64,000 bases of DNA, taken from assembly GCA_036266995.1 (NCBI GenBank), contig DATAWX010000169.1:11007-75006 (forward strand), written 5' to 3'. How positions within the stretch are numbered: position 1 is the stretch's first letter; every line of letters starts with the position of its first letter. The position numbers and the translations under genes were made by a program. The DNA comes from Pseudonocardiaceae bacterium. Lineage in GTDB: Bacteria; Actinomycetota; Actinomycetes; Mycobacteriales; Pseudonocardiaceae. The notes below the pieces were generated by a model, which saw nothing but the letters and a program-made list of their open reading frames with translations, had not been told where the DNA came from and searched no databases. This document shows positions 8,283 through 56,438 of this stretch, piece after piece.

Positions 8283-9683
8283 TCAGGCCTTGCGAAACAC
8301 CCAGCGGCGCAACAGGAGGAACCGCAGTAAGGTGGTGGCAGCGCTAGCAGTGACGATCAGCGCAGGCTCGAGCGCGGCCGGTGGTGCGCTGTGCAGGGAA
8401 TGCGCCACGGCCAGCGTGCCGCTGGTCAGGCCCAGGGCGAGCCCGAAGACGATCAGGCCTTGAAGCTGGTGGCGGGTCCTACGCCGCGGACCGACAACCT
8501 CGAAGGTGAATCGCCGGTTGAGCGCCGTGTTCGCGATCGTGGTGCTCAGCAGGGTCAGAGCGTTGGCGCTCTGCGCCCCCAAAGGGTTGCGAAGGAGCAG
8601 GAACAAGATCAGGTACGCCACGGTGCTGAGCAGCCCGACGACTCCGAACCGCACTAGCTGGCGAGTCAGTCCTGCTGGTACGCCCGCTGTGGCCGGCTCG
8701 AGCGAGGTCCGGCCGAGCTGGGCGTGCAGGTCGTGTACCGGCAGTTTACCGGTGGCGAACGCGCGGACCAGCCGGGAAATCCCGCGGAGGTCGGCCATCG
8801 CGGTGTTGACGATGTGCACGCTGCTGTCCGGGTCGTCGATCCAGTCGACGGGGACCTCGTGGATCCGCAGCCCGCCGCGCTCCGCGAGGACGAGCAGCTC
8901 TGTATCGAAGAACCACGCGTTATCCTCGATCAGCGGCAGAAGATGCACAGCAACCTCGCGCCGGATGGCTTTAAATCCGCAGGTTGCATCGGAGAAGCGG
9001 GTGGACAGGGTGTGCCGGACCATCAAATTGTAGCTGCGGGAGATGAACTCGCGCTTCGCGCCGCGGATGACGCGCGACCCTCGGTGTAGCCGGGTTCCGA
9101 TGGCGAGGTCGGAGTGTCCTGAGACCAGCGGCGCGATCAGTGGCAGCACGGCCGCGAGGTCGGTGGACAGGTCGACGTCCATGTAGGCCAGGACAGCTGC
9201 GTCCGACGCCGACCAGACGGCGCGCAGCGCACGGCCCTTGCCTTTCTCTGGCATATGTACGACCCGTACCGATGGGAACTCCGCGGCCAGTCCCTTGGCG
9301 ACCTCAAGAGTGGTGTCGGTGCTCGCGTTGTCGGCGACGGTGATCTGGAACGGATAGGGGACCTCTGCGGTTAGGTGCGCATGCAGACGTCGCACGCACG
9401 GCTCAAGGTCGATTTCCTCGTTGTAGACAGGAATGACAATATCGACAACGGGCGAGAGCGCAGGCGGCTGCGAAGCACCGGACGTGCTGGCCGGGGCAAG
9501 GTTTCCGGACGTCACGTTGAAACAGTAAAGGAGAATGTCAACATCATTATTTGGGTTGCTCTGCGTGGATTGTTCGTCACCGGCAACGAAAGCTGCAGGT
9601 GGAACATCTCCACGGGGACGAGTGGCGGGTTCGCCGGCCCGAGCGTTTCCTTTAGTGTTGATCGTACCTAAGTAACGCTTCAT
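8283..9683 (-). CDS. Family-2 glycosyltransferase fused to a GtrA-like domain, copy 2
   Basis: Almost residue-for-residue paralogue of 337-1632 ('VVDIVIPVYNEEIDLEPCVRRLHAHLTAEVPYPFQITVADNASTD...'). The 80-aa N-terminal extension in this ORF is probably partly 5' leader. Confidence 0.85.
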   Translation of the reverse strand: MKRYLGTINTKGNARAGEPATRPRGDVPPAAFVAGDEQSTQSNPNNDVDILLYCFNVTSGNLAPASTSGASQPPALSPVVDIVIPVYNEEIDLEPCVRRLHAHLTAEVPYPFQITVADNASTDTTLEVAKGLAAEFPSVRVVHMPEKGKGRALRAVWSASDAAVLAYMDVDLSTDLAAVLPLIAPLVSGHSDLAIGTRLHRGSRVIRGAKREFISRSYNLMVRHTLSTRFSDATCGFKAIRREVAVHLLPLIEDNAWFFDTELLVLAERGGLRIHEVPVDWIDDPDSSVHIVNTAMADLRGISRLVRAFATGKLPVHDLHAQLGRTSLEPATAGVPAGLTRQLVRFGVVGLLSTVAYLILFLLLRNPLGAQSANALTLLSTTIANTALNRRFTFEVVGPRRRTRHQLQGLIVFGLALGLTSGTLAVAHSLHSAPPAALEPALIVTASAATTLLRFLLLRRWVFRKA

Positions 9684-9840
9684 GAGTGCGCCTGTGCGCC
9701 GTAAATCGCTGTTCGATGGTTGTTCATGTTGGTCTACGAAGTTCCCTGCGCGAGTCGGCTTACGCAGTGTCGTCCCGCCAGTCGCGCGAAAATGGAGGCG
9801 CGCGGCATACTCGGTCCGATCTCAGCTATTCGACGGGCCC
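8283..9840. repeat. Segmental duplication, copy 2 (GT2-GtrA gene, promoter region and a degenerate remnant of a PMT 5' end)
   Basis: See copy 1. Beyond ~9840 the similarity to the PMT gene is lost and no GT39 ORF follows. Confidence 0.8.
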
Positions 9841-13097: not shown

Positions 13098-13289
13098 TTA
13101 GGGGCTAGTCTTTCGGGTCGAGAGCGATGGTCGGGGTGATCGTGAGGCCGTCCTGGATTCCAGCCGGCTGCGTGGCGTGGCCATTCCAGCGGTCAGGTGC
13201 TTTTTCTTGTTCAGGCTGGTGGAAGGCTCCTCCCCGAAGGTGAACAAAAGAGACCCAGTGGTCGACGAGAAGATTGCGATAAACCCCAC
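13098..13289 (-). CDS. sORF1: small ORF with a conserved hydrophobic N-terminus (VGFIAIFSSTTGSLLFTFGEE...), stop 1 nt before the ATG of the 727-aa GT-C-like gene
   Basis: GTG at 13289-13287; TAA at 13100-13098; ATG of the next gene at 13096. The first ~21 codons are homologous to sORF2 and sORF3 with conservative and synonymous changes. The rest is R/S/P-rich and unconserved, so the true product may be shorter or the element may act as RNA/DNA. Confidence 0.35.
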   Translation of the reverse strand: MGFIAIFSSTTGSLLFTFGEEPSTSLNKKKHLTAGMATPRSRLESRTASRSPRPSLSTRKTSP

Positions 13290-13561
13290 AAGGGACAGCT
13301 ACGGTTGGGTTTGAACCTTCCCCGTACACACGCTGACACAGGATCTATCACCATCCAGCAACGGCCCGAATCGCGGACCGGACTGGAAGGTTGTTGCCGA
13401 CCGTGACCAGACGAATGCAATTGGGGACGCAGCAAGGCGCATGTTAGTCACGTCCACGCGCGGGCTGACGTCGATCTAACGCTAGGGAAGGTGGCTGTCC
13501 CTTGTGGGGTTTGTCGTAATCTTCTCGTCGGCTGCTGGACTGGCCCTGTTCACCTTCAGGG
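13232..13561. repeat. Imperfect 68-bp inverted repeat (arms 13232-13299 and 13494-13561) flanking a ~194-bp core
   Basis: The reverse complement of the left arm aligns to the right arm without indels: 'gctgtcccttgtggggttt[a/g]tcg[c/t]aatcttctcgtcg' is 35/37 identical, then a divergent 12 nt, then 'tgttcaccttc[g/a]ggg'. About 54/68 identical by hand count. Confidence 0.8.
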
Positions 13562-13638
13562 GCGAGAGTGGTGCATCACCGACAGGAGCAGGAATCCCGC
13601 CGCCATTCTTGAGCGAGAGTGACGTACATCGTGCGTAA
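13504..13638 (+). CDS. sORF2: 44-codon small ORF (VGFVVIFSSAAGLALFTFRGE...), overlapping the start of the Ig-like protein gene
   Basis: GTG 13504, TAA 13636-13638. It is below the ORF-track length cutoff and was found by translating the right IR arm. It overlaps GTG 13619 of the downstream gene. Confidence 0.3.
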   Translation: MGFVVIFSSAAGLALFTFRGESGASPTGAGIPPPFLSESDVHRA

Positions 13639-14459: not shown

Positions 14460-16430
14460 CTAGGACCGTGGGGGCGGTGGGGTGGAGGACAGGTCGTACA
14501 GATCCGGCATGGTGAAGTCCGCGGCGCGGCGCCGGCCCGGTTGGTCGCCGGAGGGGGTCGGGATGTTGCGGCCGGGCCAGACGATCACCGAGGCGGGCGG
14601 GAGGGTGAGCCGGCATCGAGCACCGAGTGCCGGATGATCGCCGGCCCGGGTCTGCGCGGTCAGTTCGGGGCCGCCGTCCAGGGCCACCATTACCTCGTAG
14701 ACGGCCCCGAGACAGACCACGTCGCGGACGGCACCGGGGTGCCCGTCCGAGTCCTGCTCGACCAGGTCGTCCAATATCAGGTGCTCGGGGCGGATGCACC
14801 AGGTCAGCTCCGCGTCCAGGGCGGTGCCCGCCGGCAGGACGTCGGGTCCGAAGCCGATCCGTACCTGCCCCGCCACAAGCTCCCGTGCGCCGGTCCGCTG
14901 GCCGAGGTGCAGGTTGCGGATGCCGAGCAGTCGGGCGGCGGTCGGGCTGGCCGGGCGCGCGAAGACCGCGGGTTGCGGGCCCGCCTGTTCCACCTGGCCC
15001 AGCTCCAGAATCAGCACTTCATCGGCGAGCAACGCCGCCTCGATGGGGTCGTGTGTGACGATGACGCTGGTGATCGCGGTGTCGCGTTGCAGGCGGCGCA
15101 GCTCGTGGCGCAGCTCGTCGCGGACCGGCGCATCCAGGCCAGTGAACGGCTCGTCCAGCAGCAGCAGCCGCGGGTTGCGGGCCAGCGCGCGGGCGATCGC
15201 GACCCGGCGCCGTTGGCCGCCGGACAGCTGCGACGGCAACCGAGCCTCCAGCCCGGTCAGCCCCAGCCGTCTGATCCAGAATGCGGCCAGTCCGGGCTCG
15301 GTGCCGACCCCGAACATCACCTGCTGCCACACCGGTAGGTGCGGGAGCAGGGCGGCATCCTGCGGGACGTAGCCGAACCCGCGGTCCTCCGGCGCCACCG
15401 CGGTGACATCGGCACCGTCGAGACACACCTGCCCGCCGGTCGGCCGGATCAGCCCGGCCAGCATCCGCAGGGTCAGGCTCTTGCCGGATCCCGATGCTCC
15501 GAGGATGGCCAGGTGCCGACCGGTCCTGGTGGTGTGCGCCACCTCGACCTGGAACGAACCCAGCCGGCCGGCCAGGTCGAAGGTCAGCTGCGGGCTGGCC
15601 GACGAGGTGGGGGCGCTCGGCGCCGGCAGCGGGTCCGGCACCGGGTGCCGCCGGCGCAGCCGGGGGAGGTACGCGGCCAGCAGCAGCACCACCGCGGCCG
15701 CGCCCAGGCTCGCCCCGACCGCGGTCAGCGTCGAGGTGATCCCGGTGCCGCCGAACTGCACGTAGGTGAACACCGGCACCGAGAACGGGTGGTAGGCGAG
15801 TACCACGGTGGCGCCGAACTCGCCGAAGGCCCGCAGCCAGGCCAGCAGCAGACCGGCGGCGATGCCCGGCGCGGCGGCCGGGGCCGCCACCCGGGCGAAC
15901 CGCGACCACCGGCCGTGCCCGAGGGTGGCCGCCACGTCGTCCAGGGCCGGGTCCAGCGCGGCGAACGCCGAGCGGGCGGCCACGATCAGAAACGGTGCCG
16001 CGACGAAGGTCTGGGCCAGTACGATACCGACCCGGGTGTCGGTCAGCATGCCGCCGAAGAGCTGCCCGAGCGGCGTGTACGGGCCGACCAGGTAGATCAA
16101 CAGGATGCCGCTCATCAACGGTGGCAGCGCCAACGGCAGCTGCACCGCGACCCCGACCACCGTCGAGCTTCGCCCGCGGCCCCGGGAGAGCAGGTAGCCC
16201 AGCGGGATCCCGAGAACGGCGATGATCGCTGTCGAGATGCTGGCTGTCTCCACCGACACGGCCAGTGCCGAGCCGAGCCCGGGAGTGGCCAGTGCGCTGG
16301 CCGGGGTATCGGCCACCCGGATCAGGTAGGCGAGGATCGGGACCAGCAGGTATAGCGTCAGCAGCCCGGCCAGCCACGGCAGCGGGGTGCGGAACATGAG
16401 CGCCGCCCCCCCGGCTGGCCTGGCGGTCAT
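14460..16430 (-). CDS. modBC: Molybdate-type ABC transporter, fused permease (ModB) and ATPase (ModC)
   Basis: N-terminal permease with EAA loop 'LDPALDDVAATLGHGRWSRFARV'. C-terminal ABC domain with Walker A 'GASGSGKSLTL', signature 'LSGGQRRRVAIARAL', Walker B 'LLLLDEPF', then a TOBE-like tail. Substrate is inferred from context (modA, TOBE regulator, mosAB). Confidence 0.8.
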   Translation of the reverse strand: MTARPAGGAALMFRTPLPWLAGLLTLYLLVPILAYLIRVADTPASALATPGLGSALAVSVETASISTAIIAVLGIPLGYLLSRGRGRSSTVVGVAVQLPLALPPLMSGILLIYLVGPYTPLGQLFGGMLTDTRVGIVLAQTFVAAPFLIVAARSAFAALDPALDDVAATLGHGRWSRFARVAAPAAAPGIAAGLLLAWLRAFGEFGATVVLAYHPFSVPVFTYVQFGGTGITSTLTAVGASLGAAAVVLLLAAYLPRLRRRHPVPDPLPAPSAPTSSASPQLTFDLAGRLGSFQVEVAHTTRTGRHLAILGASGSGKSLTLRMLAGLIRPTGGQVCLDGADVTAVAPEDRGFGYVPQDAALLPHLPVWQQVMFGVGTEPGLAAFWIRRLGLTGLEARLPSQLSGGQRRRVAIARALARNPRLLLLDEPFTGLDAPVRDELRHELRRLQRDTAITSVIVTHDPIEAALLADEVLILELGQVEQAGPQPAVFARPASPTAARLLGIRNLHLGQRTGARELVAGQVRIGFGPDVLPAGTALDAELTWCIRPEHLILDDLVEQDSDGHPGAVRDVVCLGAVYEVMVALDGGPELTAQTRAGDHPALGARCRLTLPPASVIVWPGRNIPTPSGDQPGRRRAADFTMPDLYDLSSTPPPPRS

Positions 16431-17362
16431 CGGCCGCCGGGAGCTGAGCTGGTCGTGGGAGTCGCCGGAGCACTGGCCGTCGTCGGCAGGACTGACTTCA
16501 GCGCCGGCGGCACCGCGGCCGGATCACCGTAGAGGGCCAGCGGCAGCACCGTCAGGCCGTCCTCCTTCAACAGCTCCTCGCCCGCTGGGGACACCAGGTA
16601 CTGCACGAAGTCCGCGGCCGGTGCGGGGTCCGGGGCCATGTTCAGCACCGCCACGGTGTAGGTCGCCGCCAGGTGCACCTGGTCGAGGCTGGCGGTCTGG
16701 ATCTTCTGCTCGCCCGCCTCGTTGCTGTAGAAGAAGCCGGCATCGAGTTGGCCGGACTCCAACCGACCGACCAGTTCGGTCTCCGGCAGTACGGTGATGT
16801 TCTGCTGGGCGGCGGCCGGCAAGGCAGGATCGCTGTAGATCTTCGCGCCGTCGGTGAGTGCCTGCTGCGCGAGCTTGCCCTTGGGGTCGACCTTGGGATC
16901 GGTGCTGCCCAGCTTGAAGCCGGGCTCGGTGATCACCTGGTACCACGGCTTGGATTTCAGGTCGGCGGCGAACTTCGAGTTCGGGTTGTAACCGATCACC
17001 AGCGGCGCCGAGGCGAACTTCACATACCAGGGCACCCAGTTGCCGTTGGCCGGCCCTTGCAGGTCCGCGTTGACCGTAGGGCTGGCGCTGATGAACACGT
17101 CACCCTGGCGAACCTTGCCCTTGATCTGCGTGGCCAGTGCACTGGATCCGGCGCTGAAACCCTGGAAGGTGTCCCCGCTTGCCTGCTCGAACTTCGGGCC
17201 GAGGCTGTGTTCCATCAGGTTGACCAGCGAGCCGGCATAGAGCACCTTCACCGGACCCTTCGGCCCGGTCGACGTGCCGGCGGTACCGCCGCCCGAACTG
17301 CTACACCCCGTCAACGCCACCAGCATCACGGTCAGCACTCCGACCGCGCCTTTGACCCGCAT
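16427..17362 (-). CDS. modA: Molybdate/tungstate ABC transporter substrate-binding lipoprotein
   Basis: Lipobox 'LVALTGCSS'. Periplasmic-binding fold motifs 'VKVLYAGSLVNLME...GFSAGSSALATQIK...GDVFISASP'. 4-nt overlap with modBC. Confidence 0.75.
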   Translation of the reverse strand: MRVKGAVGVLTVMLVALTGCSSSGGGTAGTSTGPKGPVKVLYAGSLVNLMEHSLGPKFEQASGDTFQGFSAGSSALATQIKGKVRQGDVFISASPTVNADLQGPANGNWVPWYVKFASAPLVIGYNPNSKFAADLKSKPWYQVITEPGFKLGSTDPKVDPKGKLAQQALTDGAKIYSDPALPAAAQQNITVLPETELVGRLESGQLDAGFFYSNEAGEQKIQTASLDQVHLAATYTVAVLNMAPDPAPAADFVQYLVSPAGEELLKEDGLTVLPLALYGDPAAVPPALKSVLPTTASAPATPTTSSAPGGR

Positions 17363-17374
17363 CCGTTCTGCCTC

Positions 17375-17824
17375 CTAGGTTTTTGACTGCTTTGCCAGGC
17401 TCGCCCGGGCGAGGGCGTCCCGAGGCTGCTGGGGCAGGGTGACGACGACGCTGGTGGATTTCACCGAGGCCACGGCCAGTACGCCGGGCTCCAACCCGAG
17501 CTCGTCCACCGCCTCGGCGGACATCAGCGACACGATCCGGTGCGGTCCGACCTGGATCTCCACCTTGGCCATCACCTGGTCCCGGATGACCCGGGTGACC
17601 AGGCCCGGTAACTGGTTGCGGGCAGACGCGGGCAGATGCGGGACGGCTTCTTCGGTATCCGCGGCGAGCGAGGTGGCGAACCGAGCCAGCTCAGCCCCGT
17701 CCACTCCGCGCCGACCGGACTCGGTGGTCGTGGAGACGAATCGGCCGGCGTCGGCCCAGCGCCGCAGCGTGTCATCGCTGACTCCGAGTAGGCGGGCGGC
17801 CTCACCGATCCGGAACACAGGCAT
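17375..17824 (-). CDS. Transcriptional regulator: excisionase/MerR-type HTH fused to a molybdate-binding TOBE (Mop) domain
   Basis: 'FRIGEAARLLGVSDDTLRRWADAGR' HTH. C-terminal 'SARNQLPGLVTRVIRDQVMAKVEIQVGPHRIVSLMSAEAVDELGLEPGVLAVASVKSTSVVV' is a typical TOBE domain. First gene of the mod operon. Confidence 0.8.
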   Translation of the reverse strand: MPVFRIGEAARLLGVSDDTLRRWADAGRFVSTTTESGRRGVDGAELARFATSLAADTEEAVPHLPASARNQLPGLVTRVIRDQVMAKVEIQVGPHRIVSLMSAEAVDELGLEPGVLAVASVKSTSVVVTLPQQPRDALARASLAKQSKT

Positions 17825-18042
17825 CGTGACAGCCTAACCGCAGACGCGGAGTCGAGACAGGGCTACCGACGTAATTGAGATCTTCACTGTGAACGAAGTC
17901 CGCAGGTGCCGACCGTACCGACGACGAGCACGCAGTGGCGGATCGAAACCGGCGTACGCTCCGCTGATAGGTCCTAGACCGGCGCGTACTTCCGCTTGTG
18001 CGTAAACGATCTCCATGCGATGATGTCCCGCGCGGGGGGGTA

Positions 18043-18088
18043 GGGTTGTGCGGCCGCCGCGTGGGGGGTTTGCGCGGCCGCACAACCC
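18043..18088. promoter_or_regulatory. Perfect 15-bp GC-rich inverted repeat in the mod/mos divergent intergenic region
   Basis: 'gggttgtgcggccgc' (18043-18057) and 'gcggccgcacaaccc' (18074-18088) separated by 16 nt. Candidate operator or RNA stem-loop; function unknown. Confidence 0.3.
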
Positions 18089-18285
18089 ACAGCTTCGCGA
18101 AGACCACTCTTCTGGATGATAACGCCGGTGTAGCGGGTCAGGCCATGCCGTGGCCCCGCCACAGCGGTGCGTTCTGCCCGGTCATCTCCGCAGGTCTGTA
18201 CTGCCGCTCAGTCGTCGGCCCCTCCCCAGTGCGCGTCATCGCGTCTAAAGTCGATGATAAGTCCTGGTAATACGGGGAGGGTCAC

Positions 18286-19107
18286 ATGACAACAGATGTC
18301 GCGAGTAGAGCTTCGCTGGAATCGTTATTGATGAGTCGGCCGTTGAGTGACCCGGAACTCATGCGGGCAAGTGATATGGCGCCCGATTACGCCATATTGC
18401 CTGACGTGAGCGTGATTAAAATCGGTGGTCAAAGCCTGATTGACCGTGGTAGGGCTGCGGTGTATCCCCTGGTGGATGAGCTGGTGGCGGTCAAGCGGAG
18501 CCATCAGATCCTCATCGGTACCGGTGCCGGAACCCGGGCTCGGCACCTCTATTCACTCGCGGCCGAGCTCGGTCTGCCGACCGGTGTGCTGACCGATGTC
18601 GGCTCCGCGGTCGCCGATCAGAACGCGCAGATGATGGGATATCTGATGGCCCGCCACGGTGTTCCGGTGGTGGGCGGGTCGGCGTTCGGCGCGCTGCCGC
18701 TGTACCTGGCCGAGTGCGGTGCGGCGATTTTTTCGGGAATGCCGCCCTACGACATGTGGCAGCGCGTGCCCAATGAGGGAGTGATACCGCCCTACCGCAC
18801 CGATGCCGGATGCTATCTCGTGGCAGAGGTCTACGGCTGCGCCAACATGATTTATGTCAAGGACGAGGACGGGCTGTATACGGCCAATCCGAAGACCGAC
18901 CGGAGCGCCACGCTCATTCCGGAGATCACCGTCGAGGAGTTGATCGCCGCGGATCTGCCCGATCTGGTTATCGAGCGCCCGGTGTTGGAGTTGATGCGCC
19001 GCGCCCGGCACGTGCGGTCGGTTCAGATCATCAACGGGCTGCGCCCTGGTTTGCTCAGGCGCGCGCTGGCCGGCGAGCACGTCGGCACGATCATCTCGGC
19101 AGCCTGA
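18286..19107 (+). CDS. mosB: Molybdenum storage protein (MoSto) beta subunit, amino-acid-kinase/UMP-kinase fold
   Basis: From memory of Azotobacter vinelandii MosB, long collinear identities: 'VIKIGGQSLIDRGRAAVYPLVDE', 'LIGTGAGTRARHLYS', 'FSGMPPY', 'GVIPPYRTDAGC', 'VKDEDGLYTANPKT', 'RALAGEHVGTII'. Good SD 'ggggaggg' before the ATG. Confidence 0.85.
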   Translation: MTTDVASRASLESLLMSRPLSDPELMRASDMAPDYAILPDVSVIKIGGQSLIDRGRAAVYPLVDELVAVKRSHQILIGTGAGTRARHLYSLAAELGLPTGVLTDVGSAVADQNAQMMGYLMARHGVPVVGGSAFGALPLYLAECGAAIFSGMPPYDMWQRVPNEGVIPPYRTDAGCYLVAEVYGCANMIYVKDEDGLYTANPKTDRSATLIPEITVEELIAADLPDLVIERPVLELMRRARHVRSVQIINGLRPGLLRRALAGEHVGTIISAA

Positions 19108-19164
19108 GAGCTGCCGCCCCGCCGGCTGAGCCGGCAACCGAACCGCCGTCGCCCGCCAGCCATT

Positions 19165-20022
19165 TTGGAGAACGTTATGACGAACACTCTGTCGCAGTCC
19201 GAGGGTTCCTTCGCGGCGAAGGACGTGCCTTCGCCGTTGATGCGCCAGACCTTGCTCGACCGCGAACTCGTGCGGCCCCTGGACCGACCGGTGATCCCGC
19301 TGCTGCCGTGGCTGAACGTGGTCGTTCTCGGTGGCCGGTCGATCATGGACAAGGGCCGCGACGCGGTAGTGCCGGTCGTCGAGGAGTTGCGCGCCGCACT
19401 GCCGGAGCATCGGATGCTGATCCTCACCGGTCCCGGCATCCGGGGCCGTCACGTGCTGGGCGTCGGGCTCGATCTCGGCCTGCCCACCGGGGTGCTCGCC
19501 GCGTTGACCTCCGCGGAGGCGGAGCAGAACGGGCATCTCATCGCGGCGTTGCTCGCCGAGCAGGGCGTGTCCTACCTGTCGCACGCGACGATCGCGCACC
19601 AGCTGGCCGTGCACCTGGCCGCCAGCCGGGCCGCGGTATCCAACGGATACCCACCCTACGGGATCTACGAGTTCCCTCCCGACGTGGGCAAAATCCCCCC
19701 GCACCGCACCGACACCGGGGCCTTCCTACTTGCTGATGCCTACGGCGCCGCCCGCCTCATCTACGTCAAAGACGTCGACGGTGTGTTCACCAGCGACCCG
19801 GCGTCAACCAACGGCAGCCCAGCCGAGCTCATCCCTCGGATCGGGGCCGCTGCGCTACTGGCCCGCAAGCTCGACACCCTGCCCGTCGACGCGCTGGTGC
19901 TCCAGCTCATGGCGTACGCGAAGCACCAGAAAGAGATCCAGATCATCAACGGGCTCAAATCCGGCAACATCAGCAAGGCCCTGCAAGGAGAACACGTAGG
20001 CACCATCGTCCACGCGGACTGA
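19165..20022 (+). CDS. mosA: Molybdenum storage protein (MoSto) alpha subunit
   Basis: From memory of A. vinelandii MosA: 'RQTL.DR.L.RP', 'LLPWL.VV.LGGR', 'VEELR..LPEHRMLILTG.GIR.RHV.GVGLDLGLPTG', 'AEQNGH', 'IPPHRTDTGAFLLADAYGA', 'LQGEHVGT'. Confidence 0.85.
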   Translation: MENVMTNTLSQSEGSFAAKDVPSPLMRQTLLDRELVRPLDRPVIPLLPWLNVVVLGGRSIMDKGRDAVVPVVEELRAALPEHRMLILTGPGIRGRHVLGVGLDLGLPTGVLAALTSAEAEQNGHLIAALLAEQGVSYLSHATIAHQLAVHLAASRAAVSNGYPPYGIYEFPPDVGKIPPHRTDTGAFLLADAYGAARLIYVKDVDGVFTSDPASTNGSPAELIPRIGAAALLARKLDTLPVDALVLQLMAYAKHQKEIQIINGLKSGNISKALQGEHVGTIVHAD

Positions 20023-20051
20023 CGCAGCGAACCCTCCTGTTCCCGAACTGA

Positions 20052-20606
20052 TCAGAGTGGCGGCTTCTCGAGGAACACCCGATTGACGTTGCTGACATAG
20101 CGCCCGCCGCTGATGTCGCCGGGCACGACCAGTCGCGGCCCGTCGGTGGCCAGCGAGTGACCGTCCTCGCTGGTCGCCAGCAACACTTCCTTGTTCTCGA
20201 AGCCCGGATCGATCTCGCCGTAGGCCACCAGCGCCCGGTAGCCATCGGTCGCGCTGACGCTGACATAGTGACGCAACTTGTCATTCTTGATCGTCGGGTC
20301 GAACTGCGGGCCCGCCTGGGTGAGTACGTCGACCAGAAGCGGGCCGACATAGGTGTGAGTCTGGGAGCCGTTACCGGCCTTGAACGTCACAGTCTCGGTA
20401 TGCGCCGGCAGAGCCGCCAAGGCGTGCACGTCAAGGAGCGCTGGGTGCGCGACGTCGCCGATCACCAGGAACTTGCCGGTCAGCACCCCGGTGAGTGGTG
20501 GCAGGTTGGGCGCGGAGGTGCTAGCGACGGCGCCGGCACTGGCGAACGCCGTCAGGGCGAGCACAGCGAGAGCAGCACACAACCGCAGTACGGGTAACCG
20601 AATCAC
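20052..20606 (-). CDS. Small secreted protein resembling the molybdopterin-binding oxidoreductase (Oxidored_molyb / YedY-like) domain
   Basis: Chosen start is GTG 20606, with SD 'aaagga' 7 nt upstream and signal peptide 'VIRLPVLRLCAALAVLALTAFASAGAVAS'. Body: 'LDVHALAALPAHTETVTF...GPLLVDVLTQAG...SATDGYRALVAYGEIDP...GPRLVVPGDISGGRYVSNVNRV'. The longer track ORF (to 20756) has an implausible N-terminus. Confidence 0.5.
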   Translation of the reverse strand: MIRLPVLRLCAALAVLALTAFASAGAVASTSAPNLPPLTGVLTGKFLVIGDVAHPALLDVHALAALPAHTETVTFKAGNGSQTHTYVGPLLVDVLTQAGPQFDPTIKNDKLRHYVSVSATDGYRALVAYGEIDPGFENKEVLLATSEDGHSLATDGPRLVVPGDISGGRYVSNVNRVFLEKPPL

Positions 20607-20881
20607 GATGGGATCCTTTCGATTGAGAACCAGGGTGCATGGGCTGGGGCTCCGCGGCGCCGCCCTACCTGGGTGGCGAGGGCGTCCAGGCGGACGACCG
20701 TGGTCGGCAACAGCGCGCGAGTGGTGCGCTGTTATAAGGAAATTCTTAGTTCGCATTGGTACCCTTGGCGACGCAGGGATGCCCGGACTGCTGTCCGGGC
20801 AGGCACAGTCAGTGACTGGCGAACCAGTGGCATGCCAACCACGTCGTCACTGATGTCTTGCACACAGGGAGTGAGTGGGTC

Positions 20882-20911
20882 GGTGACCGGGAGCGGACAC
20901 TCCCGGTCACC
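20882..20911 (-). terminator. Perfect 12-bp stem / 6-nt loop hairpin 10 nt downstream of sORF3
   Basis: 'ggtgaccgggag cggaca ctcccggtcacc'. No U-tract follows on the minus strand, so it may be an attenuator or processing structure rather than a classical intrinsic terminator. Confidence 0.3.
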
Positions 20912-20921
20912 ATTAAGGCGG

Positions 20922-21089
20922 TCACGACACTTTCTGCGCAGGTCCGGCGAAGAACGTCGCAGAAGTCCGTGGATGAGGGGCACTACGCCGATGCATCCCG
21001 CAAACAGAGATCTCACCGGGGAGACCCTGCGGCCCGAAGGTGAACAGCAGATGTTCGGCAGTCGACCAAGGGACTACGACAAGCCCCAC
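20922..21089 (-). CDS. sORF3: third copy of the conserved module (VGLVVVPWSTAEHLLFTFGPQ...)
   Basis: GTG 21089-21087, TGA 20924-20922, 55 codons. The 68 nt 'gctatccctaGTGgggcttgtcgtagtc...ctgttcaccttcggg' align without indels to both arms of the 13.2-13.6 kb repeat (about 48/68 versus sORF1). It lies ~315 nt upstream of the secreted Mo-oxidoreductase-like gene on the same strand. Confidence 0.25.
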   Translation of the reverse strand: MGLVVVPWSTAEHLLFTFGPQGLPGEISVCGMHRRSAPHPRTSATFFAGPAQKVS

Positions 21090-21578
21090 TAGGGATAGCT
21101 AAACGGCCGAGCGTTCAGCACAACGCCGATCAGCGCTGCTGTCGAGCTCCGTGTACCGAGGGCTACCCCGTCACCCGCTCATGGAGGCCTGGCATTTGCT
21201 GAGCCAGGCCACTGATTCGTGCGATTGTGCGAAGTCAACTACGCTGCGGCTCCGTATCGGCGGATGAATAGCCATCAGGCGACTTGACGCGAGAGTCTCT
21301 TGCGGTTGGCTCACTTGCCGGGCGGTAGCGCTCCCGGTTCCACAACGCTCACGCGAATGTGCCCCGCCGATCACCTATCGTGGTTCTCCTTGGGTGCATC
21401 CTGTACGTGTATAGCCACAGTAAGTGATTCACCGGAATGCCACCTCTAGGCCAGCGCCAAAACGTCGTGTACCGATGCAAGAACTGATGGAATCTAATAG
21501 GGTCGGGGCGCATCGTTTCGGGCGTTATGAGCGCTCTGGGAGGCTTGCCGGCCGACCGGAGCCCAAGGAGGTTGGGAG

Positions 21579-21815
21579 ATGCCGCCGGTGACGAACGGTA
21601 TACCGGCCACGCTACCGCGGGGAGTCAGGTGGACTAAGAGTAGTCACAGTAATCCCAATGGAAACTGTGTGGAGTTGGCGGAACTGGCAGGCGGCACCAT
21701 CGCCGTCCGCAACTCCCGGTGGCCGGGCGGTCCCGCCCTGTTGTACGCCCGAGCGGAGATGGCCGCGTTCGTACGGGCCGTGAAGGACGGTGAGTTCGAC
21801 GAGGTGGCGGGATGA
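21579..21815 (+). CDS. DUF397 domain protein
   Basis: Canonical 'WTKSSHSNPNGNCVELAEL.GG.IAVRNS' motif. SD 'aaggagg' upstream. Confidence 0.85.
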   Translation: MPPVTNGIPATLPRGVRWTKSSHSNPNGNCVELAELAGGTIAVRNSRWPGGPALLYARAEMAAFVRAVKDGEFDEVAG

Positions 21816-22816
21816 CCGCCTTGGTTGGAGGTGTACGACGGCGGGCCGGGGTTTCGGGTGGGACAGCTGCGGTCTATGGTGAGACGATGCGTAGTGCTTC
21901 ACCCGTAGGAGGAACGGTGAGGACGGCTCTGTCGGGTAACGATCCGATCGGTAGTCACGCTCAGGTACGATCGCATGGGCCGACCGCGCTGCGTATCGTG
22001 TTGGGCAACCAGCTACGTCAGCTCCGTGAAGCAAGCGGGATTACCACCGGAGCGGCTGGCCACGCGATCCGGGCGTCTCATGCCAAGATCAGCCGCATGG
22101 AGCTCGGACGGGTCAGCTTCAAGGAGCGTGACGTGGCAGATCTGCTCACCCTGTACGGCGTCACCGATGAAAATGACCGGGGAGCGTTCCTCGCGTTGGC
22201 ACGGAGAGCCAACGTGCCCGGCTGGTGGCACCACTACGCCGACCTCCTGCCGAGCTGGTTCGAGATGTACCTCGGTTTGGAGCAGGCCAGCTCTGTCATC
22301 CGCACTTATGAACCCCAGCTCGTACCCGGCCTGTTGCAGAGCCCAGAGGGTGCTCGCGCAGTAATTCAGATGGGCCACCCCCATGCATCCGCCGAAGATA
22401 TCGAGCGGCGGCTCGCGCTGCGAATGAAACGTCAGAAAGTGCTCCTCCAACCCGGCGCGCCCAGCCTGTGGGCGGTGGTCGACGAGGCGGCGCTATGGCG
22501 TCTCGATGGGCGTTCGGTGATGCAGGAACAGATGCAGCACCTGATCGACATGGCTGAGCTCCCCAATATCACCCTGCAAGTGATGCCGTTTTATTCCGGT
22601 GCACACGCGGCAGTAGGTGGACCGTTCACGATGCTCCGGTTCGCCGAGCCCGACTTACCGGATCTTGTTTACCTTGAACAGCTCACCAGCGCCTTGTACC
22701 TGGACAAGAGTGAGGATGTTCAGCATTACCTGGTGGTGATGGACCGGTTATGTGTTCAAGCCAAATCTCCCACCGAGACAGTCCGGTTCTTGACCAGTAC
22801 CCTCAAAGAGGCGTGA
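21812..22816 (+). CDS. XRE-family HTH regulator with C-terminal DUF5753-like domain (Scr1/BldB-neighbour type)
   Basis: 'LGNQLRQLREASGITTGAAGHAIRASHAKISRMELGRVSFKERDVADLLTLYGV' then 'WWHHYADLLPSWFEMYLGLEQAS..IRTYEPQLVPGLLQ'. The real start is probably 60-150 nt downstream of 21812. Confidence 0.8.
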   Translation: MTALVGGVRRRAGVSGGTAAVYGETMRSASPVGGTVRTALSGNDPIGSHAQVRSHGPTALRIVLGNQLRQLREASGITTGAAGHAIRASHAKISRMELGRVSFKERDVADLLTLYGVTDENDRGAFLALARRANVPGWWHHYADLLPSWFEMYLGLEQASSVIRTYEPQLVPGLLQSPEGARAVIQMGHPHASAEDIERRLALRMKRQKVLLQPGAPSLWAVVDEAALWRLDGRSVMQEQMQHLIDMAELPNITLQVMPFYSGAHAAVGGPFTMLRFAEPDLPDLVYLEQLTSALYLDKSEDVQHYLVVMDRLCVQAKSPTETVRFLTSTLKEA

Positions 22817-22827
22817 GGCGGGGTCGG

Positions 22828-23649
22828 TCAAGGTTTTCGGGCGACCCCACAGTATTGGGTTACTTCGGCGGGGGTTCCGACTTCGCTTGGGCCAGGGCGC
22901 CACAGCGAACACGAAACCACCCCCGGAGGCAGTAGCTCCAGCCCGTCGAAGAAGCGGGTGAGCTCCTGACGGCTGCGGGTTCTGATCGGGGGGGCGCCGC
23001 TTGAGTTGTACTGCCGAACAGACGTTTCTATCGCCTCTGTGTGGATTTCTGCGGTGGGATGAGACATCGCCAGGTAACTTCCTGAAGGCAACGCATCCAG
23101 GAGCCGCTTGGCGATTGCGTGGGCCTCGGCGTTATCTAGGATGTAGTTGATCAACCCCAGCAGCATGAGCGCAACGGGCTGGGTGAAGTCCAGCGTCCGG
23201 GCAGCTTCTTCCAGGATTCTCTCCGGGTCGCGCACATCGGCATGGAGATAATCGGTGCTGCCCTCCGGTGTGCTGGTGAGCAGCGCACGCGCGTGAACCA
23301 GCACCATCGGGTCGTTGTCGACGTAGACGATGCGGCAATCCGGCGACGTCGCTTGGGCCACCTGGTGGGTGTTGTTCACAGTGGGCAGTCCGGTGCCGAT
23401 GTCCAGCAGCTGGCGGATCCCTGCGTCTCCGACGAGGTACCGGACGGCCCGGACCAGGAACCCTCGGTCGGCGCGAGCCGAGTCACGCAGATCGGGAAAG
23501 GTCGTCAGAACCTGCTCGCCGACCTCGCGGTCGATCGGGTAGTTGTCCTTGCCACCCAGCATGTAGTCCCAGAACCGAGCTGGTTGCGGCACCGTGGTGT
23601 CGATATTCGCAAGCGGCTCCCGTGCGGCCGCGGACGAGCGGTCCTCCAC
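22828..23649 (-). CDS. SAM-dependent methyltransferase, DUF574 family
   Basis: 'PQPARFWDYMLGGKDNYPIDREVGEQVLTTFPD...ARADRGFLVRAVRYL...GIRQLLDIGTGLPT' is typical of the actinobacterial DUF574 family. Confidence 0.85.
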   Translation of the reverse strand: MEDRSSAAAREPLANIDTTVPQPARFWDYMLGGKDNYPIDREVGEQVLTTFPDLRDSARADRGFLVRAVRYLVGDAGIRQLLDIGTGLPTVNNTHQVAQATSPDCRIVYVDNDPMVLVHARALLTSTPEGSTDYLHADVRDPERILEEAARTLDFTQPVALMLLGLINYILDNAEAHAIAKRLLDALPSGSYLAMSHPTAEIHTEAIETSVRQYNSSGAPPIRTRSRQELTRFFDGLELLPPGVVSCSLWRPGPSEVGTPAEVTQYCGVARKP

Positions 23650-55671: not shown

Positions 55672-56438
55672 TTATTTCAGGGTGACTACCTTGCGCATAC
55701 CCATCAAAGCGTGCGGTATGCCGGACTGGTCGTCCGCAACGAAACACAGCAGGACATACGTGCCAGCCGGCAGGTTGTACGTGATGTCGGCGTGCTTGCC
55801 GGGCGACAGCACCCCCATCTCGATCTGCGGACCAGGCTGTGCGAAGGGCGGGGCACTCTGTGTGCCGGAGTCGAAGAAATCCTGGATGTCCTTGTCCTCG
55901 TGCCCGGCTTGACCGGTGATTCTTCCATGAAGTCGATTGTGTCGGACACGTTGCGGGCGGTGATCTTGCCTGCCGCGGGCAGGAGTGGCTCGGGAGGCCG
56001 CGCAGGGGGAAGAGATGGTGGATCGGGAACGCGCCGATACCGGAGATCGGGCCGATCAGCGGGAAGGGAAGGTGGATCGGGAGCGGGCTGATACCCGGGA
56101 ACGGGAATATGGGGCCACCCTGGCTACCGCCTGGCCCGCTGACCTGCAACGTGGTCAGTGTCGGCTTCGCTCCGGGGGCCACCGAGTTGGCGTCGAACAG
56201 GTAGTACGTGCCGGCCGAGAGCTGCTCAATGACGGTCACCGGCGTGCCCTTGACCACCCCGGCAAGCCCGAAGATGCGGGCGTCCTGGACGAGTTCTCGG
56301 GTGCTCTTCGCCGCGGTAGGCGTGTACCACGACCGTTGAGTCCAACGGCGTCGCGGCGGCCGAACCGTGCCGGCCCACCAACCCCACCGTGATCAATGCG
56401 GCGGCCACCAACGTGGGTAACACCTTGGCTCTCCACAT
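55672..56438 (-). pseudogene. Secreted cupredoxin-like protein gene readable only through at least three frame changes
   Basis: ATG 56438 after 'ggagg' gives signal 'MWRAKVLPTLVAAALITVGLVG'. Next frame: 'AKSTRELVQDARIFGLAGVVKGTPVTVIEQLSAGTYYLFDANSVAPGAKPTLTTLQVSG'. Next: Pro-rich linker '...PDPPSLPPARPPEPLLPAAGKITARNVSDTIDFMEE'. Last frame: 'ITGQAGHEDKDIQDFFDSG...HADITYNLPAGTYVLLCFVADDQSGIPHALMGMRKVVTLK*' with a Cys...His....Met type-1-copper-like pattern. Confidence 0.45.

Follow-up and report, generated by a model that had tools for sequence, protein, structure and literature searches.

Upstream of a gene for a secreted protein, at about 21 kb in the 64,000-nt stretch of Pseudonocardiaceae DNA analysed here (the window), a short open reading frame (sORF) on the minus strand ends just before a hairpin with a perfect stem and resembles two further sequences at 13.2-13.6 kb. 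The question raised by this locus is what such an arrangement does for the gene that follows it, and whether its effect would lie in a peptide, in an RNA or in the DNA itself. The initial annotation favored the peptide, reading the sORF and the hairpin as a leader-peptide attenuator. Our findings identify two separate repeated modules, A and B, that are reused before many unrelated genes in uncultured soil Pseudonocardiaceae, and the copy of element A at this locus very probably regulates the downstream gene in cis.

Results

Three copies of element A in the window

Element A is present three times, and no fourth copy was found in the window.

13224-13305, minus strand: element A copy 1, upstream of a 727-aa membrane protein
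13488-13569, plus strand: element A copy 2, upstream of a secreted Big_3_5 protein
21020-21105, minus strand: element A copy 3, read as an activator-dependent promoter cassette (nhmmer profile 69-76 bits)

Positions 21033-21101 (minus strand) are identical to copy 1 (13233-13301, minus strand) at 50 of 69 positions and to copy 2 (13492-13560, plus strand) at 51 of 69, both without gaps, and copies 1 and 2 are identical to each other at 54 of 69. When 69-mers were each scanned over both strands of the whole window, the background had a mean of 18 identities with a standard deviation of 3.7 and the best unrelated match reached 35-37 of 69, so the similarity of the third copy lies about 9 standard deviations above background for a GC content of 66%. 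The third repeat copy that had been claimed from the sequence is therefore genuine, with 50/69 and 51/69 set against a background maximum of 37/69.

More than 40 copies at other loci can also be aligned to copy 3 with no indels. At least 42 relatives of element A were counted in 312 kb of loci from Pseudonocardiaceae MAGs, and a pattern scan of genome contigs gave 27 matches, 24 of which are in Pseudonocardiaceae, Pseudonocardiales or Actinomycetota MAGs. Most copies are solo; where two stand head to head they occupy divergent intergenic regions, and the 91-182 nt between them are not related from one locus to the next. This agrees with the earlier argument against the module as the terminal repeat of a single mobile element, and on the same grounds we rejected a MITE reading of the pairs.

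Position of element A and the genes that follow it

Element A lies nearly always upstream of the next gene and in the same orientation, and this position and orientation fit a promoter. One copy begins just 36 nt after the upstream gene (locus L022). Several of the genes directly downstream of element A copies resemble components of phosphate uptake systems: a PstC gene scores 256 bits, exceeding its cutoff of 196, while a PstB gene (329 bits against 343) and two PstS-like genes (187-189 bits against 205) fall slightly under their NCBIfam cutoffs. The second gene of an A-linked operon (L007) encodes an 827-aa protein whose C-terminus bears a weak PstS-like match (33 bits), and phoU comes after a Big_3_5 gene led by element A at two loci (L023 and L029). 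As judged from these annotations, the gene content downstream of element A fits phosphate control. Many other genes downstream of element A are without a known phosphate link, and these include many envelope or secreted proteins with no known phosphate role.

Two further observations concern the surroundings of individual copies. Genes for hrd-like sigma factors adjoin element A copies in L023 and L010, and one copy (1547 on the plus strand of L023, 594 on the plus strand of L029) is directed into the phoU 3' end instead of toward a gene.

Element A carries no coding signal and no conserved fold

20922-21089, minus strand: 55-codon sORF, not a gene but a frame left open by GC content and descent

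The 55-codon frame is present with the translation given in the initial annotation, and it closes with a TGA ending at 20922, 10 nt short of the hairpin. Among the 27 non-redundant rows of a 36-copy alignment of element A, however, column entropy is flat across the three codon positions (0.83/0.79/0.84), and the alignment has no 3-nt periodicity. In-frame stops fall within the conserved core of five copies (at codons 2, 8, 8, 12 and 21), the start is lost in one copy in which GTA replaces GTG, and substitutions between orthologues lie mostly at sORF codon positions 1 and 2. On the flat entropy, the in-frame stops and the orthologue substitutions, a coding sORF was rejected. An open frame of about 22 codons is kept in most high-scoring copies, and the lengths beyond these conserved codons vary among the window copies, giving sORFs of 63, 44 and 55 codons. 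The GTG at 21089 has no Shine-Dalgarno sequence before it, and the predicted transcription start described below lies some 74 nt downstream of it.

Element A likewise yielded no conserved RNA fold, the RNAalifold consensus being only -0.48 kcal/mol. A "variable hairpin" after the core was dropped, with a mean fold z-score of 0.02 for the 3' part of the element, and a fixed-register GGGG/CCCC helix proved no better than shuffles, with pairing in 62% of cells where the shuffles gave 60%. Across the whole window Rfam gave 0 matches at the gathering threshold and nothing significant at the E-value threshold, where the best hit was Scr6925 (26 bits against 50, E = 0.4).

Promoter-like parts of element A

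21084-21101, minus strand: 5' conserved block TAGCTATCCCTAGTGGGG, including the GTG at 21089, about -85 to -68 from the predicted start
21035-21067, minus strand: three consecutive 11-nt units, GGTCGACTGCC, GAACATCTGCT and GTTCACCTTCG
21045-21035, minus strand: GTTCACCTTCG, PHO-box-type direct-repeat unit, with its GTTCACC core at 21045-21039
21024-21029, minus strand: predicted -10 hexamer CAGGGT of type VANNNT, with A2 at 21028 and T6 at 21024
13245-13235, minus strand: repeat unit of copy 1
13229-13224, minus strand: -10-like GAGCCT of copy 1
13548-13558, plus strand: repeat unit of copy 2
13564-13569, plus strand: -10-like GAGAGT of copy 2

The unit GTTCACCTTCG is invariant in element A and matches the direct-repeat unit of Streptomyces PhoP. 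Scored against GKTCAYYYRSG, this unit agrees at 8-11 of its 11 positions, and in 40 of the 41 non-redundant copies at 9-11; the two units upstream of it, which stand in 11-nt register, agree at merely 5-8 and 4-8 of 11. Column entropy in element A has no 11-nt periodicity (lag-11 autocorrelation -0.23). The repeat-unit consensus for PhoP of S. coelicolor is GG/TTCAYYYRG/CG, and binding there requires at least two units (PMC2275107). In Actinosynnema pretiosum PhoP binds GTTCACNC, and PhoR of this species is reported to be relatively conserved in Pseudonocardia (PMC9019756).

A hexamer of the form nAnnnT occupies a fixed position in 41 of 41 copies, in 13 different versions that have A2 and T6 as their only invariant positions, and its first base is usually C or G, not T. 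The GTTCACC 7-mer ends 9 nt before this predicted hexamer; in E. coli the pho box is separated from the -10 by about 10 nt. In 24 of 41 copies an ATG or GTG comes 6-9 nt after the hexamer (mode 7 nt), a spacing that suggests a leaderless start. In mycobacteria, ANNNT at -6 to -13 is the signature of the -10 element and is found in 79% of M. smegmatis promoters, the VANNNT promoters are the weaker ones in that species, and an ATG or GTG at the transcription start suffices for leaderless translation (PMC6448022). A sigma-70 consensus scan found no promoter, and the activity of element A would thus depend entirely on an activator; manual comparison of the element with the ECF-sigma, SigB/F and WhiG promoter consensus sequences gave no fit.

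The best-conserved block of the family is TCCCTTGTGGGG, which is nearly invariant (entropy about 0) and lies at about -79 to -68. Some 50 nt upstream of the PHO-box-type site, it is not accounted for by the promoter model. The 86 nt of full homology exceed what a transcription-factor site needs.

Element B, hairpin H1 and the downstream gene

20732-21016, minus strand: 94-codon ORF from GTG 21016, the predicted transcription start and leaderless start codon
20750-20911, minus strand: element B, a structured leader about 160 nt long that makes up the second repeat family (nhmmer 154 bits)
20882-20911, minus strand: H1, first hairpin of element B, GGTGACCGGGAGU-GUCC-GCUCCCGGUCACC
20809-20854, minus strand: H2 of element B, outer stem CAGTGAC/GTCACTG around the nearly invariant GTGGTTGGCATGCCACTGG
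20780-20801, minus strand: H3 of element B, TGCCCGGAC-AGCA-GTCCGGGCA
20749-20768, minus strand: relic Shine-Dalgarno sequence and ATG at the 3' end of element B (CCAAGGGTACCAATGCGAAC), from the alignment
20052-20620, minus strand: gene for the 184-aa secreted SUOX-fold-like protein, with a GTG start at 20606 preceded by the Shine-Dalgarno sequence GAAAGGA

The perfect hairpin reported at 20882-20911 is borne out: its stem has 12 Watson-Crick pairs, to which one U-G pair can be added, and its loop is 4 nt long. It folds at -27.7 kcal/mol (z = -5.85), an energy matched by 0 of 200 shuffles. No T tract is present at H1, a terminator scan of 20000-21600 found nothing, and H1 belongs to element B, copies of which are found without element A; we therefore rejected H1 as a terminator of the sORF. 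Between loci the stem of H1 covaries (GGTGATCG/CGATCACC in L005 and L039, GGTGGCGCG/CGCGCCACC in L010 and L031) and its apex GGAGTGTCCGCTCC is conserved.

Element B as a whole shares 73-83% blastn identity with copies at other loci over 140-167 nt and has a fold z-score of -4.3. In its consensus structure 88% of cells are paired, against at most 40% when the alignment is slid, there are 9 double-change pairs against 3.9+-1.3 in shuffles, and the G-U pairs are valid on the sense strand only. We regard element B as a candidate new structured RNA. It is also found far from any copy of element A, in tandem and between cistrons. In other copies the Shine-Dalgarno sequence and ATG at the 3' end are the real start (MRKR...) of secreted proteins, and element B seems to have moved together with the 5' end of this gene family; in orthologues of the present locus the ATG has decayed to AAGGCG (L042) or ATC (L044). 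On manual comparison a sigma-54-like TTGGCATG-N-TGGTT in element B did not fit and cobalamin and Moco riboswitch boxes were unsupported, and the Rfam search returned no riboswitch.

The peptide encoded from GTG 21016 is not conserved. In orthologues the frame is 34-40 codons long and indels disrupt it. In three of them this putatively leaderless upstream ORF (uORF), not the 55-codon sORF, stops 1-2 nt before H1, and in two operons the TGA of the upstream cistron falls within the 5' arm of H1, which leaves a faint trace of the attenuator idea; the leaderless uORF of the window itself is frameshifted. A second uORF downstream of element A (MNLIRGV..FSPI.Q) was set aside, as it is kept in three related loci only and its frame is broken elsewhere.

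The gene at 20052-20606 (minus strand) has, as first described, an N-terminus resembling a signal peptide, and its start lies 276 nt from H1. The match of its product to Pfam Oxidored_molyb is borderline (24.3 bits against a cutoff of 24), and homologues are called at 184 aa. Elements A and B are conserved in orthologues, and the spacer between B and the gene has diverged. Because homologues keep A and/or B in three contexts without mod genes, a tie between the module and the neighboring molybdate genes was rejected.

Discussion

With a little better than an even chance, in our estimation, the region 21105-20607 (minus strand) consists of a promoter cassette of the PhoP type and, after it, a structured 5' leader, which together would drive the gene for the 184-aa secreted protein. 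The control region of this gene would thus be built from two lineage-specific reused modules. Element A (21105-21020) would act at the DNA level as a promoter cassette, in which a regulator of the OmpR/PhoB family, most likely a PhoP orthologue, would bind GTTCACCTTCG and the weaker 11-nt-phased units upstream of it, over a site spanning about -40 to -23, and would recruit RNA polymerase to the weak -10 CAGGGT (VANNNT type). Transcription is predicted to begin about 7 nt past the -10, at GTG 21016, and the RNA, starting with a start codon, would carry a leaderless, non-conserved uORF. The transcript would then continue through element B (20911-20750), a three-hairpin leader that includes H1, and reach the Shine-Dalgarno sequence and GTG of the gene itself at 20606. 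By the same logic, the two copies at 13.2-13.6 kb would be back-to-back promoters firing divergently.

If this is true, an uncultured clade of soil Pseudonocardiaceae has wired much of a phosphate-scavenging and envelope regulon through one reused promoter cassette of about 90 bp, with some regulon genes also sharing a leader of about 160 nt, instead of through short sites evolved gene by gene, and would offer a clear natural case of promoter propagation. The element A profile would then be a handle for predicting members of the Pho regulon in unculturable genomes, and the predicted members include many secreted Ig-like proteins and glycosyltransferases without known function. A promoter role would also mean that an open frame with conserved "peptide blocks" at 66% GC can be a promoter, not a gene.

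Other explanations of element A differ in what they make of its conservation and its neighbors. It may be a promoter or operator controlled by another member of the OmpR family, by an alternative sigma factor or by a second factor bound at TCCCTTGTGGGG, the likeness to a PHO box being partial or coincidental, a possibility that we consider unlikely. The single good PhoP-type unit, the invariant 5' block left unexplained, the hrd-like sigma-factor genes beside copies in L023 and L010 and the many envelope or secreted regulon members would all suit such a regulator, but pstC, pstB, pstS-like and phoU genes are the core of every known Pho regulon, GTTCACC is the core PhoP motif in both Streptomyces and Actinosynnema (PMC2275107, PMC9019756), and no ECF-type -35/-10 pair could be fitted to the conserved blocks on manual inspection. 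It is distinctly unlikely that element A acts as RNA, in the form of a linear, unstructured 5'-UTR motif transcribed from an upstream promoter, which would mimic an anti-Shine-Dalgarno sequence or be bound by a protein or sRNA. Its orientation strictly follows the downstream gene, which an RNA motif would explain, as it would the pyrimidine-rich UCCCUU and UCACCUUC, which on reading the sequence resemble anti-Shine-Dalgarno sequences (the 16S 3' end, with which UCACCUUC was compared, is UCACCUCC), and the copy in L022 has merely 36 nt between it and the upstream gene. Yet element A is without a conserved fold, no -10-like motif stands at a fixed distance upstream of it (canonical TANNNT sequences there are scattered, with at most 2 per position in 45 copies), head-to-head spacers of 91 nt leave little room for two more promoters, and an nAnnnT hexamer and a start codon within or after the element are the expected trace of a promoter, not of an RNA motif.

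We think it very unlikely that A and B have no regulatory role and are interspersed repeats of MITE, BOX or REP type, selfish or neutral, which lie upstream of genes because insertions are tolerated there. Homology of 86-160 nt before unrelated genes, the modular combinations of A and B, the tandem copies of B and a possible presence/absence difference in L006 would be in keeping with such repeats, but copies of A have no terminal inverted repeats, the spacer of paired copies is not conserved, and plasmid and phage collections searched for the module gave no match. Conservation is moreover block-wise, with a -10 signature and an invariant GTTCACC, and not uniform, the copies are strongly enriched at pst and phoU genes, and orthologues keep A and B while the spacer between B and the gene diverges. 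As for the attenuator proposed at the outset, in which a translated 55-codon sORF (VGLVVV...LFTF) would control the downstream hairpin, the comparative data contradict it and we give it hardly any credence. An open frame ending 10 nt before a very stable hairpin, and the frame of about 22 codons in most high-scoring copies, had spoken for it; against it stand the missing codon periodicity, the stops in five copies and the lost start in another, the GTG without a Shine-Dalgarno sequence, the unequal ORF lengths, and a hairpin that has no U tract, sits 276 nt from the gene and belongs to an element that occurs without A. Leader-peptide transcription attenuators are known for trp and his, and cysteine-responsive leaderless sORFs act in this way in mycobacteria. 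The present family is like these in that the upstream ORF of some copies ends at the foot of a stable hairpin, and unlike them in having no conserved peptide, no run of regulatory codons and no U tract, and in that the leaderless uORF of the window reads through the hairpin.

Building on the promoter cassette and leader, one might suppose that element B and the transcribed tail of A form an undescribed cis-regulatory RNA of the phosphate-starvation regulon, that termination of an upstream frame at the foot of H1 sets the fold of the leader, and that A and B are actively copied to new genes; we offer this tentatively and doubt that all of it holds. The preceding cistron or the leaderless uORF would supply the upstream frame, the leader fold would set the stability or the translation of the secreted-protein mRNA, and the regulon would have been built by propagation of promoter and leader, not by evolution of individual sites.

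BOX, ERIC and Correia elements are modular, hairpin-rich, co-transcribed intergenic repeats that occur in tandem or between cistrons. Element B is similarly modular, hairpin-rich and intergenic, is predicted to be co-transcribed and has tandem or intercistronic copies, but it ends in a Shine-Dalgarno sequence and start codon and no transposon-like ends were seen in it. All three elements are named in a survey of putative mobile promoters (PMC3575422). Element A shares with the PHO boxes and PhoP promoters of actinomycetes (PMC2275107, PMC9019756) an 11-nt unit with a GTTCACC core, which would lie beside or over the -35 region of a predicted promoter with a weak -10, and a position before pstS-like, pstC and pstB genes and a phoU-containing unit. 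It departs from S. coelicolor, in which two or more units are required, in that the cassette has one good unit, and from PHO boxes in that the site lies in about 86 nt of sequence, including the TCCCTTGTGGGG block, that is homologous between regulon members. Putative mobile promoters share more than 50 nt of homology upstream of non-homologous genes in one genome (PMC3575422), and the three window copies do the same: they precede non-paralogous genes of the same genome, for the 727-aa membrane protein, the Big_3_5 protein and the SUOX-fold-like protein, with 72-78% identity over 69 nt, where the survey asks for at least 50 nt. Element A is also like these promoters in having no associated transposase and no Rfam match, but its paralogues are mostly 70-80% identical, against a survey threshold of 80% (PMC3575422), and its copies have a functional theme and plausibly a regulator in common. 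Mycobacterial leaderless transcripts and short ORFs (PMC6448022) have in common with element A the ANNNT hexamer followed by ATG or GTG 6-9 nt on, and ORFs that are not conserved as peptides; unlike those transcripts, a start codon is present in 24 of 41 cassettes only, and the rest would yield leadered mRNAs.

The third copy of the module and its locus

The features of the locus are listed here, element A being the repeated module of about 86 nt and element B a second repeat family.

13224-13305 (-): element A, copy 1
13488-13569 (+): element A, copy 2
21020-21105 (-): element A, copy 3
20922-21089 (-): 55-codon ORF
21016 (-): GTG, predicted leaderless start of copy 3
20750-20911 (-): element B, with hairpins H1 (20882-20911), H2 (20809-20854) and H3 (20780-20801)
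20052-20606 (-): gene for a 184-aa protein with a signal peptide

The initial annotation had read the module as a small ORF with a hairpin behind it, a layout resembling a leader-peptide attenuator, and had placed a third copy upstream of a gene for a signal-peptide-bearing protein. The third copy was recovered at 21033-21101(-), which matches 13233-13301(-) at 50/69 positions and 13492-13560(+) at 51/69, ungapped. Scanning 69-mers on both strands of the window, whose GC content is 66% and whose nearest relatives point to an uncultured Pseudonocardiaceae bacterium, gave a mean of 18 matches (sd 3.7) and best unrelated values of 35-37; the similarity is thus above background and the copy is real. 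The window contains no fourth one. Also present is the 55-codon ORF, with its stop 10 nt ahead of the hairpin, as is the signal-peptide gene, whose 184-aa product has a borderline Oxidored_molyb match and which starts at 20606 behind its own GAAAGGA Shine-Dalgarno sequence. The hairpin, described as perfect, has 12 Watson-Crick pairs, one further U-G pair and a 4-nt loop. Its energy is -27.7 kcal/mol (z = -5.85), it lacks a T tract, and a terminator scan gave no match.

Distribution of element A

Starting from the three window copies, a profile search revealed further copies in every related locus reached through homologues of the 184-aa protein, six of them on a single 16-kb contig, and one round of iteration brought the total to 42 copies in 312 kb, with later additions from metagenome contigs. 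When one genome per species was scanned with a pattern, 27 stretches matched, of which 24 lie in metagenome-assembled genomes of Pseudonocardiaceae, Pseudonocardiales or Actinomycetota and none in cultured genera. The copies align without indels across about 86 nt and stand upstream of, and co-oriented with, the next gene; head-to-head pairs occupy divergent intergenic regions, as at 13.2-13.6 kb in the window.

Element A as a predicted promoter

The conservation of element A is not that of a coding sequence. In the alignment of 36 copies (27 non-redundant rows), mean column entropy in the originally proposed frame is 0.83 for the first, 0.79 for the second and 0.84 for the third codon position, which is thus not relaxed. 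In-frame stops interrupt the conserved core in five copies (codons 2, 8, 8, 12 and 21), GTA replaces the GTG start in another instance, and substitutions between the window copy and its orthologue in a syntenic contig (L005) fall mostly at codon positions 1 and 2. A conserved small ORF is contradicted by the flat entropy, the stops and the lost GTG. RNAalifold found practically no consensus structure (-0.48 kcal/mol, one 3-bp helix), the stretch 3' of the core folded no better than shuffles (mean z = 0.02), and Rfam returned nothing for the module or the window. By these measures, element A is not a peptide gene, nor is it a folded RNA. A small helix that had been proposed also failed to beat controls.

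What is nearly invariant in element A is TCCCTTGTGGGG, GTTCACCTTC and, within a variable hexamer, two bases that lie four positions from each other. This hexamer, nAnnnT, begins 16 nt after the G of GTTCACC in 41/41 non-redundant copies and occurs as 13 different sequences (CAGCGT, CAACGT, CAGGGT, GAGGGT, GAGAGT, GAGCCT, TAGCGT and others), with A2 and T6 as the sole fixed bases. ANNNT is found at -6 to -13 in 79% of M. smegmatis promoters, VANNNT marking the weaker ones (PMC6448022), and we take nAnnnT as the predicted -10 signature of an actinobacterial promoter. An ATG or GTG begins 6-9 nt past the hexamer in 24/41 copies, with a mode of 7 nt; this is the predicted layout of a leaderless transcript. 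Upstream, GTTCACCTTCG agrees with the S. coelicolor PhoP direct-repeat unit GG/TTCAYYYRG/CG (PMC2275107) at 8-11 of 11 positions, 40/41 copies reaching 9-11; two preceding units in 11-nt register match it weakly (5-8 and 4-8 of 11). PhoP of Actinosynnema pretiosum binds GTTCACNC, and PhoR of that species is reported to be relatively conserved in Pseudonocardia (PMC9019756). Because the GTTCACC core ends 9 nt ahead of the hexamer, the predicted PhoP site spans about -40 to -23. A site at this position has the geometry of PhoB-type activation.

Genes downstream of element A

Several copies at other loci directly precede genes of phosphate uptake.

Products encoded directly downstream of element A copies at other loci
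PstC: 256 bits (cutoff 196)
PstB: 329 bits (cutoff 343)
Two PstS-like binding proteins: 187-189 bits (cutoff 205)

In addition, the second gene of the A-linked operon in L007 codes for a protein of 827 aa whose C terminus matches PstS weakly (33 bits), and in L023 and L029 phoU follows a Big_3_5 gene orthologous to the gene behind window copy 2; an hrd-like sigma-factor gene lies beside another copy in L023. Of roughly 15-18 independent A-linked units, four are core Pho transcription units, a share far above chance. The remaining A-linked genes encode mostly secreted or envelope proteins, including Big_3_5 Ig-like proteins, a Tat-signal DUF7405 protein, a cadherin/RTX protein and a terpene synthase-P450 fusion, and many of the secreted proteins have no Pfam match. 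Window copy 1 lies upstream of a gene for a 727-aa membrane protein, which adjoins an envelope-glycosylation cluster.

One copy (L023 1547-1632(+); L029 594-680(+)) is flanked by the hrd-like sigma-factor gene and by the 3' end of phoU, pointing antisense into phoU. It does not fit a promoter upstream of a gene; its target could be an antisense RNA or, at a distance, the sigma-factor gene.

Element B, a candidate structured leader holding the hairpin

The hairpin (H1) is part of element B, which is also found without a nearby element A. The apex GGAGTGTCCGCTCC recurs 3' of A copies at unrelated loci on different stems (GGTGATCG/CGATCACC and GGTGGCGCG/CGCGCCACC). By blastn and profile, window 20911-20750 forms one unit of about 160 nt that shares 73-83% identity with copies in L007 (two), L032, L024 and L016, and with others in metagenome contigs.

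Arrangements of element B
120-200 nt 3' of A, same strand: window, L042, L044, L045, L048
Immediately 3' of A: L016
Tandem: L040
Between cistrons, no A nearby: e.g. L007, between the 827-aa and 338-aa genes

Across 18 copies, 88% of cells in the three hairpins are paired, against 40% or less when partners are slid, and both-side changes occur at nine pairs, against 3.9+-1.3 in shuffles (0/500 reach nine). Several G-U pairs are valid on the sense strand only, and the window copy folds with z = -4.3. Most copies have at their 3' end a Shine-Dalgarno sequence followed by ATG CGA AAG..., with which secreted MRKR... proteins begin; the terminal ATG ahead of the 184-aa gene is a decaying relic. Position and structure suggest that element B controls mRNA stability or translation. 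In L005, L039 and L042 a predicted leaderless uORF terminates 1-2 nt short of H1, the TGA of the upstream cistron lies inside the H1 5' arm in L007 and L032, and in the window and L044 the uORF is frameshifted and runs through B. These endings could reflect real coupling of upstream translation to B folding, or coincidence.

L006 has the 184-aa gene with its proximal 150 nt, 97.5% identical to the window (L006 9735-10005 vs window 20759-20560) without A or B, the identity stopping at ~20759, the 3' end of B; this absence may be an assembly artefact, as the contig looks error-rich, with fragmented gene calls. Element B contains TCCCTG(T/C)GTGCAA twice, once behind H1 and once behind H3 (window 20876-20860 and 20779-20765), and this sequence resembles the invariant TCCCT(T)GTGGGG block of A (window 21095-21084); the motif may be a putative shared protein-binding site. 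Short uORFs with their own Shine-Dalgarno sequences lie 3' of A copies at L032 ~6900, L043 ~7920 and L007 ~9340 (MNLIRGVAATFSPILQPRE, MQLSRGVSATFSPVMQPRE and MSFICGVPVNFSPIVQ). A nucleotide block, CTCATCTGCGGCGT...TTCTCGCCG, is common to more A-downstream copies, including window 20977-20940, its frame not being kept in all.

Proposed mechanism and relation to known systems

Two reused modules, the conservation pattern of A, its Pho-gene neighbourhoods and the covarying hairpins of B, all established by sequence analysis, lead us to favor, with some reserve, a PhoP-type promoter cassette and structured leader upstream of the 184-aa gene. Under phosphate limitation, a PhoP-like regulator would bind A at about -40 to -23 and activate the weak VANNNT promoter. 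Transcription would start at GTG 21016 and yield an RNA with a start codon at its very 5' end and a uORF of 94 codons in the window and 34-40 in orthologues, the peptide not being conserved, and would run on through B to the 184-aa gene. The GTG at 21089 chosen initially would sit about 74 nt upstream of this start site.

Not everything agrees with this scheme. Each copy of A holds a single strong PhoP-type unit, and its conservation shows no 11-nt periodicity, which does not fit the PHO-box model; nor does a PhoP promoter account for the invariant TCCCTTGTGGGG block. That the same cassette answers to a different regulator seems to us unlikely. The closest systems to the PhoP-type cassette are actinomycete PHO-box promoters, mycobacterial leaderless promoters and the "putative mobile promoters" of Nijveen et al. 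(PMC3575422). Element A shares the unit sequence and regulon content of the PHO-box class, with PhoP binding as a prediction. That class calls for two or more units, and A carries one strong and two weak ones in register. A conserved leader peptide and an intrinsic terminator, as expected of an attenuator, were sought and not found, and the module fell into no Rfam family. It lacked the terminal inverted repeats of a MITE, in line with the earlier view that it is not merely the terminal repeat of a mobile element, and plasmid and phage collections gave no matches. The novelty would lie in a promoter cassette specific to one clade, with homology extending over about 86 nt, that is spread across a regulon and in some genes is joined to B, a candidate new structured leader.

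Gene neighbourhood

The molybdate cluster at 14460-20022 encodes ModA, a ModB-ModC fusion, a MerR+TOBE regulator and two AA_kinase-family proteins resembling the molybdenum-storage pair (MosA/B-like). Homologues of the 184-aa gene in three other genomes do not adjoin mod genes, so its adjacency to this cluster is apparently not functional. On its other side, the locus adjoins DUF397 and HTH_31/DUF5753 genes (a WhiJ/BldB-like pair) and a Methyltransf_19 gene (21579-22816 and 22828-23649), neighbours also present in L005. Elsewhere in the window, a segment of ~1.4 kb is duplicated at 337-1770 and 8283-9729 (spacing 7946 nt, 78-92% identity in pieces), each copy comprising a GT2+GtrA gene (polyprenol-phosphate sugar synthase-like) together with the sequence upstream of it. 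The cluster around them also includes a PMT-family gene and further large membrane glycosyltransferase-like genes. At 55996-56103 a 54-nt unit is repeated in tandem, its two copies being 80% identical.
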